Shown piece by piece: positions 1,044 through 4,569 of a DNA stretch of 4,695 nt. The translations under genes and the position numbers were made by a program. Where the stretch lies: the IMG/VR virus record IMGVR_UViG_2541047874_000001; one strand, written 5' to 3'. The notes under the pieces are model-generated. The model did no database searches, had not been told where the DNA came from, and saw nothing but the letters and a program-made list of their open reading frames with translations. This stretch comes from a virus (Duplodnaviria > Heunggongvirae > Uroviricota > Caudoviricetes). Position 1 is the stretch's first letter, and each line of letters starts with the position of its first letter.

Positions 1044-1073
1044 TTGACGTGTGCGTCGTTTTGACGGTAAAGT
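1044..1073 (+). promoter_or_regulatory. Candidate sigma70 promoter for the leader and antirepressor operon (-35 TTGACG 1044..1049, 18-bp spacer, -10 TAAAGT 1068..1073)
   Basis: Hexamer match only. A second TTGACG sits at 1061..1066, and an alternative extended -10-like TGTGTATATAAG sits at 1160..1171 just after the terminator. The true transcription start cannot be decided from sequence. Confidence 0.25.
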
Positions 1074-1135
1074 TACTCCGCTGCGGTAAATCCCGCAGCC
1101 GGGCGTGAGAACCCGAATATCCCAAGCGACGCACA

Positions 1136-1158
1136 ACACGCGCCAGCGTGTTTTTTTT
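1136..1158 (+). terminator. Rho-independent terminator
   Basis: Perfect 6-bp stem ACACGC (1136..1141) / GCGTGT (1146..1151), 4-nt loop GCCA, immediately followed by a run of Ts through 1158. Confidence 0.75.
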
Positions 1159-1190: not shown

Positions 1191-1267
1191 TGGTGGCTCA
1201 GGCGGGGCAGCCGAAAGGCTGGCCGGTATCGTTTGGGCCGGTATTCTCACCCCCGTCTGGGCTACCA
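1191..1267 (+). ncRNA. Candidate structured regulatory RNA of the phage P1 c4 / P4 CI / N15 CA antisense class (about 77 nt)
   Basis: Closing helix 1191..1207 with 1251..1267 (17 pairs: 14 Watson-Crick plus 3 G-U). Inner hairpin CAGCC-GAAA-GGCTG (1208..1221) with a GNRA tetraloop. A second short CCGG-based hairpin (1223..1241). A single-stranded stretch UAUUCUCAC (1242..1250) whose core TTCTCAC (1244..1250) is complementary to GTGAGAA inside both copies of the direct repeat GCGTGAGAAC (1103..1112 and 1278..1287). Exact RNA ends are unknown; an alternative is a short RNA from about 1081 to the terminator at 1158. Confidence 0.4.
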
Positions 1268-1327
1268 CCCCCTTAGAGCGTGAGAACTCTGGTGGTAGCA
1301 CTGTTCTTCCAAACAAGAGTGCATACC

Positions 1328-1492
1328 ATGTTCAAATTCAAATTTGCGGCAGTCGTTCGCACAGACAAAAAGTCACACATCCATCATCTTTCCACTATCG
1401 CGTCATCTGAACGGGAAGCTCGTCGCCAGTTCGCCAGCCGGTTTGTCCTGGTATTGTCTGCCCGTATTCCGGTGCGCGAGGTGGCTGCATGA
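1328..1492 (+). CDS. Hypothetical small basic protein (54 aa), first gene of the antirepressor operon; occupies the position of icd in P1/N15-type immunity operons
   Basis: ATG at 1328 with a weak SD, AAGAG (1315..1319); stop TGA at 1490..1492 overlaps the next start (ATGA). The listed GTG start at 1280 lies inside the structured leader and is judged less likely. The icd assignment is positional only. Confidence 0.45.
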   Translation: MFKFKFAAVVRTDKKSHIHHLSTIASSEREARRQFASRFVLVLSARIPVREVAA

Positions 1493-1722
1493 ATCAGGTA
1501 AAAATGAACACTGTTGGCCTGCTGGAATCGTTGGATGAACGTCTGGCTCAGGTCTATGCGCTTGTGTCATCAGCCCATCGTACAGTCTCCAGTTGTGAGG
1601 CGTCGATTTATCTCTCAGAAGCCGGGAAGCTCCTTCAAATCGCGTGTGAGTTGACACACAAAGCACAGGGGTATTCAGCATCTCTCTCGTCGCAATTGCA
1701 GCACAATAAGGAGGCCAAATGA
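1489..1722 (+). CDS. Hypothetical protein (77 aa), middle gene of the antirepressor operon (antA position)
   Basis: ATG at 1489 preceded by GAGGTGG (1478..1484); ATGA overlap with the upstream stop and again with the downstream start at 1719, indicating translational coupling. Confidence 0.6.
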   Translation: MNQVKMNTVGLLESLDERLAQVYALVSSAHRTVSSCEASIYLSEAGKLLQIACELTHKAQGYSASLSSQLQHNKEAK

Positions 1723-2501
1723 GCGCGTTAGCTGTATTTTCGTTTCAGGAAGAGCATCAGGTTCGTGTAGTGATGATTGATAGCGATCCGTGGTTTGTAG
1801 CGGCTGATGTTTGTAATGCCATCGGGATTATCAATCATCGTGATGCTGTTGGTAAGTTGGATGAAGACGAAAAGGGGGTCGGTTCAACAGACACCCTTGG
1901 AGGTAAACAGGGAGTGACAATTATCAACGAATCCGGCCTCTATACCCTAATCCTCCGCTGCCGTGATGCGGTGAAGCAAGGCACAACAGCTTGGCGGTTT
2001 CGCAAATGGGTAACGAACGAAGTCTTGCCCTCTATTCGCAAAAATGGAGAGTACGTTTACATCGAGCCTGAGCCAATGCGAGCAGCAGAGCCGTTGAACT
2101 GGAGGCAGAAAGAGTATCTGCGAGGGCTGATTAACGATATAGCACAAAGTTTTCAGTACCGAAATGCCTGGATTAGCGGTGTATGGTTAGCTTTGCGTCG
2201 GGCGTGTCGTAATCCGTCCCCGAACCCCATAACTGTTGATGATTTGCCAGCAATTACGGCAGAACTGCGCCGGATTTTGACGGCTGCTGAGTCGGCATTG
2301 GGGAACATGCGCACGTATGAACGAGAGTTGTTGCGTGATGTTGTTCGTGGGGGTAGGCGGAGTATGTCGTGTGGTGATTTGCCCATCACCGATATTAACT
2401 CTGATCTGGAAAAGGCGTTACCCGCGCATTTTGAACTGGCAGTTCAAAAACTTGAGCAGTTATCCGCGCAGTTAAAGCCAGCAGAAATCACTAATAAATA
2501 G
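1719..2501 (+). CDS. Bro-N domain protein, phage antirepressor-like (260 aa)
   Basis: ATG at 1719 preceded by AAGGAGG (1708..1714). The N-terminal ~110 aa match the Bro-N pattern as I know it (FSFQ..VRVV..D..PWFVAADVCNAIGI...DAVGKLDEDEKG...INESGLYTLILR...A..F.KWVTNEVLPSIRKNGEYVY). The C-terminal ~130 aa do not look like the usual KilA-C/ANT domain to me. Confidence 0.85.
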   Translation: MSALAVFSFQEEHQVRVVMIDSDPWFVAADVCNAIGIINHRDAVGKLDEDEKGVGSTDTLGGKQGVTIINESGLYTLILRCRDAVKQGTTAWRFRKWVTNEVLPSIRKNGEYVYIEPEPMRAAEPLNWRQKEYLRGLINDIAQSFQYRNAWISGVWLALRRACRNPSPNPITVDDLPAITAELRRILTAAESALGNMRTYERELLRDVVRGGRRSMSCGDLPITDINSDLEKALPAHFELAVQKLEQLSAQLKPAEITNK

Positions 2502-2673: not shown

Positions 2674-4569
2674 TTAGCCGAAATATGTCAGCCATGCTAA
2701 CTGCATTGCTGACATGGGGCTGTTTGCACTGCCTGACCACGCATAATTCTGGCCATTATAATGAAACTCGACAACGTATGAGCCATCACCAATATTTCTC
2801 ACTGGCTTAAATACCGGCTTAGATACAGGCGAAGAAGGTGCAGGCGGTTGCTGTTCTTCTACGCTCTCTTCCTCTTCCTCTTCCTCTATCTCAATTTCGT
2901 CGTCATCCAGATCGTCATCCTCTGATAATTCATCCGCCAGTTCAGGTATTGCTTCCAGTTCTTCTTCGTCAGGCATAACGATTTCTGGAGTATCTATTTT
3001 CAGTTGCCATTGTCCGTTTTCGCCAACAAATTGCCCCAGAGCATCAGCAGCAAATTCCAGGTATCGACTAATCATTGTTGGGCTAAATTTGAACGCTCTT
3101 AGAGTGCTGTTCGTGATTTTTATAGAGGGGTCCTGCTCTACCAGCTGCTTAACTGTGTTATGCAGACGAACCCCGGCATCTCCTCTGGCGAATCCAGGCA
3201 TTTCGTCATCAAGCTGCTGCAATGCTTCCAGCCTGGTATTTTCGTTTCCAGTATTTGGCCTCCATGTCTTTGAGAAGTTGGCCAGCTTGAATTGCTTATA
3301 GTGTAATTGAGTGTTTTCATCGTCATGGCCTAAGATTTCCATAAAGAAAACATCCTCATCTACGTTTTTCCAACGAGGATCTACGCGGAAAAACATTTCA
3401 TACGCAATACGGGCATAAATAGCACGACTATCTTTATAAACACGGCGGTCATCTTTGAAAAATGATTTAACCCACGGGTTAAAAGCCTTTGCTAATATGG
3501 CATTAATACGTCCGTTTTCAGAGCGTGTGTCGTTATCTCCATAACCTTTAACGACATCATCAAAATCAGATGCTGCTGGGCATGAGCGAAGTACATTTAT
3601 TAAATAAACAAATGTTTTTGCTTCGCATAATGTATATATTTTTCTGGTTATATCATCAGAAGTTCTTTTTTTAGCTTGGCCTAAAAAATCAACGGTATAC
3701 TTACCAGAAACAGTAAATGTACCTTGATACATAATCTCAATCATTCGTCTTCCTGACAATGCAGCAAGTGCAAATGCCAAAGGAGCCATACCTGAACGAG
3801 TGTTTAGATTATTTAATGTAGCAGGGCTATTTATAATATCGTAAATAGCTTGCATATATTTAGGGTAATCAATGACCACCACGTTACGTTTCTTATTGTG
3901 CAGAACGTCCGCCCATCGTTGCTGGATAGATGCGCGTTCGGCAGGGCTTAGTTGAAGATGATAGAGAATCTCATGGTTAACTTTTAGCTGATTCAACTCC
4001 TCAAGCAAGGCAGATCCTTGCTGTAGTAATTTATATAAATAATCGCGCTTATCTTTCCAGTTATCGCTAGTTAAATCAGAAATGGCGAATTGCCACTCTT
4101 TATATTTATTTGATAATTTTAATAACTTATTATGACTTTTGTTATCACCAATTCTGATATTAGATAAATCTTCTGATAAAGGGAGAATTAATTTTAATTT
4201 TGCCTGTAAAGCTGACATTCTCTGTCGAATATCGGCAGCAGGTAGAGAAAGCCATGACAATAGCTCCTCATTATATAAAGGATACTTTTCAGATAGGCGA
4301 TGTATATTTTTTTCAAAGCTATGATGAAGTTTATCATCAAACCGTTTTCTGGCCCTGCTCATATAGGCATTGAATGTGTTGGCTGTAATTCTTTTTTCTA
4401 ATCCTTTCCCCCTAAACTTTCGCTTGTCATTAAATAATGCATTTTTAAATTTTAATGCAACAGCCTTTATTTTTTTTGTTTTTTCCCCTTGAGGACGGTC
4501 AGAGTTATCTATTGACTCAACATCGCTAACAAGTGAGTTTATTAATTCACCGATTTTTACTTTGCTCAT
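2674..4569 (-). CDS. telN: Protelomerase (telomere resolvase), TelN/TelK family, 631 aa
   Basis: The whole ORF reads as the TelN/TelK family from memory (MSKVKIGELIN..., NALFNDKRKFRGKGLEKRITANTFNAYMSRARKRFDDKLHHSF, SGRRMIEIM, RINAILAKAFNPWVKSF, KDSRAIYARIAYEMFFRVDPRW, ILGHDDENTQLHYKQFKLANF). 631 aa equals the length I recall for N15 TelN. The tyrosine in LHYKQF is residue 424 (codon TAT, complement of 3298..3300), the reported catalytic position; Arg275 and His415 are also present. SD GGAGAGGA lies 5 nt upstream of the ATG on the - strand. Confidence 0.93.
   Translation of the reverse strand: MSKVKIGELINSLVSDVESIDNSDRPQGEKTKKIKAVALKFKNALFNDKRKFRGKGLEKRITANTFNAYMSRARKRFDDKLHHSFEKNIHRLSEKYPLYNEELLSWLSLPAADIRQRMSALQAKLKLILPLSEDLSNIRIGDNKSHNKLLKLSNKYKEWQFAISDLTSDNWKDKRDYLYKLLQQGSALLEELNQLKVNHEILYHLQLSPAERASIQQRWADVLHNKKRNVVVIDYPKYMQAIYDIINSPATLNNLNTRSGMAPLAFALAALSGRRMIEIMYQGTFTVSGKYTVDFLGQAKKRTSDDITRKIYTLCEAKTFVYLINVLRSCPAASDFDDVVKGYGDNDTRSENGRINAILAKAFNPWVKSFFKDDRRVYKDSRAIYARIAYEMFFRVDPRWKNVDEDVFFMEILGHDDENTQLHYKQFKLANFSKTWRPNTGNENTRLEALQQLDDEMPGFARGDAGVRLHNTVKQLVEQDPSIKITNSTLRAFKFSPTMISRYLEFAADALGQFVGENGQWQLKIDTPEIVMPDEEELEAIPELADELSEDDDLDDDEIEIEEEEEEESVEEQQPPAPSSPVSKPVFKPVRNIGDGSYVVEFHYNGQNYAWSGSANSPMSAMQLAWLTYFG
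2851..2970 (-). other. Poly-acidic low-complexity tract within the protelomerase (residues about 534..573, including EEEEEEE), encoded by CTC/TTC repeats on the + strand
   Basis: Translation DEEELEAIPELADELSEDDDLDDDEIEIEEEEEEESVEE; the + strand reads ctcttcctcttcctcttcctc around 2861..2885. Confidence 0.8.

Follow-up and report, generated by a model that had tools for sequence, protein, structure and literature searches.

The leader of the secondary-immunity (anti-repressor) operon in an N15-like prophage can fold in two ways that compete for one RNA strand, and our comparison shows that both of the helices concerned are under selection. One of them is stem P1, which closes an antisense RNA of the C4/CA/CI type; the other, which we call ALT, joins the 3' end of this antisense RNA (the 'tail') to a strand X further downstream. 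ALT is a real, conserved RNA helix and not a product of chance, and two folds with a shared strand are a real design feature of the leader. What ALT may do is a question of graded answers: we consider it somewhat probable that it acts as a latch, which locks a self-neutralized fold of the leader, shows the target site a2 in a loop and removes the shape of an RNase P substrate.

The leader and its antisense RNA

The window, i.e. the whole stretch of 4,695 nucleotides analysed here, belongs by sequence and gene content to an N15-like linear plasmid-prophage of Escherichia. Its layout is that of an N15-type immA locus, with the leader followed by icd, antA and antB and with a protelomerase gene adjoining, the latter being a minus-strand ORF (2674-4569) whose product contains four TelK domains. 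The nearest phage is YDC107_1, with 93.7% identity, and the top plasmid match reaches 94.7%. N15 itself has 80% DNA identity over the leader, a region labelled 'cA: secondary immunity repressor' in the N15 record, and P4 cI matches at 83% over 1190-1299. The system is thus identified by these identities to N15 and P4 together with the Rfam C4 and isrK scores, the neighbouring genes and the specificity loops a', a1 and a2, which covary across phages. It is a system that was already known, to which the locus adds one member with P4-like a' specificity. Upstream of the leader, two plus-strand ORFs (17-592, 191 aa; 718-942, 74 aa) gave no Pfam match, and a GC-rich hairpin at 992-1035 (CCCCGTGAC..GTCACGGGG), immediately 5' of the leader promoter, probably terminates the previous operon.

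The promoter-like site (table 1) implies a transcription start near 1080, where the Rfam isrK match also begins. As in other isrK elements, two hairpins with the upstream target are followed by a rho-independent terminator, the sole canonical one called by the scan and located upstream of the antisense RNA. The Rfam family c4-a1b1 (RF03163) matches 1067-1119 with 43.3 bits (E=1e-8), i.e. just under its gathering score of 46.7. A 12-nt inverted repeat (1050-1061/1124-1135, 92% complementary) relates the flank of b1 and the terminator to the spacer of the promoter, which precedes the presumed start; this repeat would be relevant only if some transcripts begin further upstream.

The antisense RNA itself is matched by the Rfam C4 model at full length (1186-1272) with 75.2 bits (E=5e-14; gathering score 45), and the mature ends given in table 1 are deduced from the annotated C4 RNA of phage P1, a homologue. 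Among 54 aligned sequences, 98.1% of the alignment cells of the C4 fold are paired, 16 pairs carry changes in both partners, and covariation scores 0.521, compared with 0.208 after shuffling. The 17-pair helix, part of what the first-pass annotation had likened to the layout of an attenuator, is therefore the P1 stem of a known type of antisense RNA, and the 'candidate RNA' mentioned there turns out to be the same molecule. By analogy, RNase P would release the antisense RNA from the leader as a molecule of about 77 nt; the relevant features visible here are a tRNA-like stem and an ACC 3' end.

Two pairs of target sites, named a1/b1 and a2/b2 as in the annotated phage P1 genome (NC_005856), flank this RNA in the same transcript, one upstream and one downstream, as is characteristic of C4. 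The loop a' is complementary to a1 (1105-1111) and a2 (1280-1286), which lie within two copies of GCGTGAGAAC at 1103-1112 and 1278-1287, and b' is complementary to b1 and b2, its complementarity to b2 being taken straight from the sequence. At least five specificity classes occur among the 12 N15-like phages (GUGAGAA, UCUCAA, GUAGGAA, UUGGAAC and UCGCAA), with a', a1 and a2 changing together; these classes look like heteroimmunity made by loop swapping.

Table 1. Features of the leader and of the operon downstream (positions in the window).
Feature	Position	Strand	Details
Promoter-like site TTGACG, 18-nt spacer, TAAAGT	1044-1073	+	leader/anti-repressor operon
IsrK-like 5' leader RNA	1080-1156	+	Rfam isrK (RF01394), 67 bits, gathering score 50
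Hairpin in IsrK-like leader	1080-1099	+	
a1 hairpin	1100-1115	+	loop CGUGAGAA at 1104-1111
b1 site CCCAAGCGA	1121-1129	+	
Rho-independent terminator	1135-1152 (stem), then T-run	+	terminator scan
Stem P1 (17-pair helix)	1191-1207/1251-1267	+	3 G-U pairs included
C4/CA/CI-type antisense RNA	1192-1269	+	Rfam C4 (RF01695)
P2 hairpin	1208-1221	+	
P3 hairpin	1222-1242	+	b' UCGUUUGGG at 1229-1237, in and around the loop
a' (UUCUCAC)	1244-1250	+	single-stranded; DNA TTCTCAC
Shared strand (tail) GCTACCACC, RNA GCUACCACC	1261-1269	+	
Inner stem AGAG/CUCU	1275-1278/1287-1290	+	inside ALT loop
Strand X GGTGGTAGC, RNA GGUGGUAGC	1291-1299	+	pairs with 1261-1269 to form ALT
b2 (CCAAAC)	1309-1314	+	beside Shine-Dalgarno
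Shine-Dalgarno AAGAG	1315-1319	+	
Strand Y	1318-1329	+	resembles tail
icd start codon ATG	1328-1330	+	
icd-like gene	1328-1492	+	NCBIfam NF033153, E=1e-18
antA-like gene	1489-1722	+	PHROGs anti-repressor families
Bro-N anti-repressor gene	1719-2501	+	Pfam Bro-N, E=1e-19; PHROGs anti-repressor families
Regulated operon icd-like/antA-like/Bro-N	1328-2501	+	gene order as N15 genes 32-30

ALT, a conserved helix that excludes lower stem P1

ALT consists of nine Watson-Crick pairs between GCTACCACC and GGTGGTAGC, at exactly the coordinates proposed in the first-pass annotation. The same annotation had taken the whole of 1261-1269 for the 3' strand of the 17-pair helix, which is correct for 1261-1267, the 3' side of the lower seven P1 pairs, but not for 1268-1269, which form an unpaired 3' overhang; the tRNA-like ACC end lies at 1267-1269. 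Since ALT takes up both the 3' strand of the lower seven P1 pairs and this ACC end, it can form only when the antisense domain is incompletely folded. Within the 21-nt loop of ALT, the inner stem (predicted pairing probability 0.68-0.94) holds a2 (GUGAGAA) in an 8-nt loop, CGUGAGAA, identical to the loop of the a1 hairpin. The second copy of GCGTGAGAAC, which was said to be looped out about 40 nt before the first start codon of the operon, ends 41 nt before the ATG at 1328.

Within the window, a 9-bp inverted repeat is unremarkable by itself: the window has 11 inverted repeats that span 9 nt or more within 80 nt, ALT being the shortest among them, and by our own estimate about 0.6 perfect 9-mers are expected by chance. 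The case beyond chance rests on the relatives of this leader. Our comparison set comprised 12 aligned N15-like, PY54 and P4 phages and 120 further loci obtained from IMG/VR by a C4 pattern, with 93 sequences showing a proper stem P1. All of these 93 loci have a helix between the tail and a downstream segment (the median helix has 9 bp, and the loops comprise 16-25 nt), and cognate tail/X pairs outscored non-cognate ones in 10000 of 10000 permutations (20 tail classes). In a MAFFT alignment of 54 sequences, 89.4% of the cells of ALT and the inner stem are paired, as against 78% after shuffling and no more than 50% once the two strands are shifted out of register; the covariation score is 0.344 versus 0.19 (0 of 500 shuffles), and both sides have changed in 10 of 13 pairs, i.e. 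in six of the nine pairs of ALT and in all four of the inner stem. Compensatory variants include GCTATCGCC/GGCGATAGC (P4), GTCACCGCC/GGCGGTGAC, TCGCCACC/GGTGGCGA and CCTGCCA/TGGCAGG, and ALT is also found in phage P1, P4, N15 and Gifsy-1. G·U pairs are tolerated in ALT, which places the constraint on the plus-strand RNA and not on the DNA. RNAalifold applied to truncated alignments returned the a':a2 antisense pairing in one run and only four ALT pairs in the other, runs that are uninformative because the short variable loops align poorly.

That the complementarity is incidental, with X and tail preserved independently of any pairing—X, for instance, because it duplicates the P1 5' strand or serves as a protein site in the DNA—is hardly credible in view of these data. 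X (GGUGGUA) does resemble the P1 5' strand (UGGUGGC), and the lone repeat in the window would fit a coincidence; yet the compensatory double changes and the specificity of cognate pairing do not, X follows the tail by Watson-Crick changes whereas the P1 5' strand does not, so that X is no mere copy, and the tolerated G·U pairs would correspond to C·A mismatches in the opposite strand, a fact that speaks against a DNA palindrome. The earlier claim of two incompatible helices that share a strand has thus held up, with covariation supporting the conservation of each.

Signs of a balance between the two helices come from their base pairs and energies. In the alignment, where the shared strand carries U, its partner in stem P1 stays G (20 G·U pairs) and its partner in X becomes A (16-19 U-A pairs). 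Over the same seven tail bases in 34 distinct sequence combinations, G·U pairs make up 47 of 238 pairs in lower P1 versus 14 of 226 in ALT, the mean energy of the bare duplex is -9.4 kcal/mol for lower P1 and -15.2 kcal/mol for ALT, and ALT is the stabler helix in 31 of the 34 combinations. A lower P1 weakened by G·U pairs opposite a Watson-Crick ALT is what a balanced switch would be expected to show. For the window folded without its upstream leader, swapping the lower seven P1 pairs for ALT costs 3.6 kcal/mol (-57.0 vs -53.4), with a barrier of about 7.8 kcal/mol for the local exchange of strands between P1 and ALT.

The layout had originally been likened to that of attenuators and RNA-controlled switches. 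Both helices being selected speaks for two alternative folds by design, as do the alternative structures of Gifsy-1 isrK (PMC4825925), but the generic attenuator has to be given up: the leader is not a classical attenuator, since a conserved U-tract is lacking and a scan for terminators with loops of 3-8 nt called none at ALT, the sole canonical terminator lying at 1135-1152, and the Shine-Dalgarno sequence and AUG are predicted to be equally accessible in both folds. ALT as an intrinsic terminator was likewise dropped because U-tracts after X are rare.

A related reading, in which ALT is a terminator or pause hairpin—possibly equivalent to P4 t4—and P1 its anti-terminator, such that the leader would be a true attenuator after all, we regard as decidedly unlikely. 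Weinberg et al. 2010 (PMC2864571 supplement) noted for several C4 RNAs a predicted terminator hairpin whose 5' half overlaps with the 3' half of P1, and thought that this overlap might be cis-regulatory. X is followed by GUUAUUU in P4 and by CUGUUCUU, with 5 U in 8 nt, in the window. P4 t4 is said, in work by Briani and co-workers from 2000, to be an atypical Rho-independent terminator between cI and timm without a typical terminator structure, and this position near ALT keeps the terminator reading alive for P4-like elements. Yet at least five T in the 8 nt after X occur in only 11 of 84 distinct loci, N15 itself has no U-tract there, the 21-nt loop of the ALT hairpin is interrupted, the scan (limited to loops of 3-8 nt) called no terminator at 1261-1310, and a route by which an antisense RNA acting in trans would favour the ALT hairpin is not evident.

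Other pairings of X and of the tail were considered as well. Positions 1292-1302 have an alternative partner in 1318-1329, a segment that reaches into the first two bases of the ATG, but this X:Y helix was rejected as a general output, as it shows no family-wide covariation: X paired with downstream sequence in general stood out in a permutation test (4/10000), whereas a specific test, confined to the last 14 nt up to the start codon, gave no significant result (3916/20000), and P4 shows no compensation there. A cis H-type pseudoknot of a':a2 with tail:X was set aside too; the strand order fits, but a linker of 4 nt hardly seems enough to span a 7-bp stem. No riboswitch family of Rfam matched the window at E up to 1. 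More generally, four strands of the region form two pairs of similar sequence (1189-1197, 1261-1269, 1291-1299 and 1321-1329; UGGUGG resembling GGUGGUA, and GCUACCACC resembling GCAUACCAU, which contains the first two bases of the ATG). They permit pairing either as 1:2 with 3:4 or as 2:3 with 1:4, and once ALT is forced the displaced 5' strand of P1 is predicted to pair with the start-codon region.

Predicted coupling to the upstream sites and a proposed latch

What could tip the balance towards ALT is suggested by folding models, all of them equilibrium thermodynamic predictions. In an RNA without the upstream leader (1186-1340), P1 is retained and the probability of ALT stays below 0.01. 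When the leader is included (1080-1340), the fold of lowest energy contains a1 paired with a' in cis together with ALT, the latter at a probability of 0.70; the a1:a' pairing is predicted to extend into the top of P1 and to unfold the C4 domain, and forcing P1 costs 3.1 kcal/mol (-110.6 vs -107.5 kcal/mol). Over 78 loci, ALT reaches a mean probability of 0.92 when the natural leader is present. This value drops to 0.23 once a1 is replaced by its complement and to 0.15 once the leader is shuffled; in the window, complementing its own a1 alone still gives 0.81. The predicted trigger for ALT is therefore cis pairing of the a1/b1 sites with the antisense domain.

Folding of successive prefixes of the transcript adds a temporal order, in which a1:a' is favoured once a' has been transcribed (probability 0.93-0.97) and ALT forms once X has been transcribed. 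The barrier between the two global folds is estimated at about 17-28 kcal/mol, and a barrier of this height would mean that the choice of fold is made during transcription and not by later equilibration. The link between ALT and the pairing of a1/b1 is thus a prediction of these models, and so is the height of this barrier.

The same models speak to what the choice might control. The Shine-Dalgarno sequence is predicted to be alike in both folds (0.30 vs 0.32-0.35 unpaired), with similar values for the AUG. Because of this equal accessibility, and with the displaced 5' strand of P1 pairing with the start region, no translational output is predicted. Sequestration of the ribosome-binding site as the output of the switch was dropped, given this equal accessibility and the unsupported pairing of X with the start codon. 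The target a2, on the other hand, is predicted to be 97% unpaired when ALT is forced; the corresponding values are 94% for the full leader with forced P1 and 51% for the leaderless RNA.

These values also bear on a simpler view of ALT, namely as a static hairpin that presents a2 for fast kissing with antisense RNA acting in trans, much like the a1 hairpin upstream, and involves no switch at all, so that it would matter only in RNAs devoid of the P1 5' strand, generated by a cut inside the antisense domain or by decay. The identical 8-nt loops around a1 and a2, the covariation of all four inner-stem pairs and the rise in a2 exposure from the leaderless RNA to the RNA with ALT forced would all suit such a hairpin. 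Structured target loops are common in antisense systems. They are also remarked upon in the supplement to PMC2864571. However, the inner stem by itself already presents a2, which leaves a 9-bp outer stem built from the 3' strand of P1 superfluous, and the G·U weakening of lower P1, where ALT stays Watson-Crick, finds no explanation. We know of no RNA species lacking the P1 5' strand, and altogether we judge a purely static role unlikely.

In the latch model, which we prefer, each read-through transcript would be committed during its synthesis to either of two folds. In the first fold, the antisense domain with an intact P1 would be tRNA-like and cleavable by RNase P, and the repressor RNA would be released. 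In the second fold, the transcript's own a1/b1 would pair in cis with a'/b' and thereby open P1, and X would then capture the freed tail to form ALT. ALT would stabilize this self-neutralized fold, abolish the RNase P substrate shape and keep a2/b2 exposed, such that expression of icd and of the anti-repressor would be decided only by repressor RNA supplied in trans. The supposed effects of ALT on RNase P processing and on expression are what we infer from the structures. The model gives a structural form to a proposal made in 1990, according to which a1/b1 and a2/b2 compete for C4.

A more far-reaching version, which at present seems to us possible but rather doubtful, takes tail:X as a universal fourth element of C4/CI/CA/IsrK leaders that makes for an irreversible co-transcriptional choice between a source of repressor RNA and an ALT-latched anti-repressor mRNA. 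Occupancy of a1/b1 by repressor RNA acting in trans would then set the ratio of the two folds. If true, this would amount to a bistable circuit made of RNA only and to a natural case of an RNase P substrate gated by alternative pairing.

C4/CI/CA antisense RNAs are textbook cases of RNA-based phage immunity and are widespread in enterobacterial prophages, satellites and plasmid-prophages. The role of a1/b1 has been a puzzle since 1990, and so has the way in which an mRNA with a built-in repressor can be expressed at all. A helix that forms only with the repressor domain unfolded offers a concrete structural handle on both puzzles. If the latch model is correct, it would explain how transcripts are partitioned between repressor production and anti-repressor expression, and why IsrK-like RNAs are activators; if it is wrong, the locus is simply another N15-like immA leader. 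Keyword searches of the literature, with the original N15, P4 and phage P1 papers outside their scope, did not yield a description of the ALT helix, the nearest remark found being the overlap noted by Weinberg et al. 2010. ALT is thus apparently new to models of the C4/CA/CI system, although it may be drawn in the original papers with a different role.

Relation to known systems

The closest known counterpart is the N15 immA locus, in which CA RNA reportedly controls icd-antA-antB (Ravin, Svarchevsky and Dehò 1999). The window shares with it the gene order beside the protelomerase gene, the position of the terminator and an identical tail and X (GCTACCACC/GGTGGTAGC). In contrast, a' is UUCUCAC in the window and UUGAGAA in N15, and with different a' loops the window element and N15 are probably heteroimmune.

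It is P4 that has the same a' specificity: the CI RNA of P4, known with its sites seqA, seqB and seqC from the Dehò/Ghisotti laboratory, has an a' and an a2 identical to those of the window, keeps ALT through the compensatory changes GCTATCGCC/GGCGATAGC and is likewise preceded by a terminator located between the a1 site and the antisense RNA. P4 differs in a longer spacer between leader and RNA, in its b' and in the absence of icd and ant genes downstream. Its regulation has been described as transcription termination. When 1190-1299 is compared with P4 (L003, 811-917), the a' loop, the a1/a2 targets and the whole 3' half are common to both and b' differs; partial cross-talk in immunity between plasmid-prophages and P4-like satellites is a possibility raised by this similarity.

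The C4 system of phages P1 and P7 (Citron and Schuster 1990) has the same arrangement of a1/b1, and of a2/b2 before icd-ant, according to NC_005856. In the phage P1 version of ALT, CCUGCCACC/GGUAGCAGG, eight of the nine positions pair and the loop contains a2; unlike that of the window, it has a single C·A mismatch, and its loop measures 12 nt. The phage P1 operon is additionally under a C1 operator, and the mechanism described is a translational block of icd. Processing of phage P1 C4 by RNase P is established (Hartmann 1995), and competition of a1/b1 for C4 is a proposal of Citron and Schuster as quoted in the supplement to PMC2864571.

Experimental precedent for two leader folds comes from Gifsy-1, where an IsrK-like RNA is followed by a C4-like RNA in the leader of IsrK/orf45 (STnc1160)/anrP, as in the window. 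Alternative leader structures A and B were proven experimentally there (Hershko-Shalev et al. 2016, PMC4825925), structure A being formed by the middle part of IsrK with the C4-like region in cis, as established by mutation, compensation and native gels. Structure A corresponds to the fold with ALT predicted for the window. The Gifsy-1 tail and X (UCACCACC/GGUGGUGA) can form eight pairs around an a2-like loop, but the RNA folded in PMC4825925 (nt 1-180) stops before X, so that ALT lies outside that model. Gifsy-1 differs from the window in having no icd gene and in that its C4-like region is treated as a translated orf45; this orf45/STnc1160 region (L134, 448-560) is a full match to the C4 family, with 69 bits.

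Finally, the leader shares with trp-type attenuators the principle of four successive strands that pair either as 1:2 and 3:4 or as 2:3. In contrast to these, it has no canonical terminator among its alternative hairpins and no leader peptide, and the trigger predicted here is an RNA–RNA pairing inside the same transcript.
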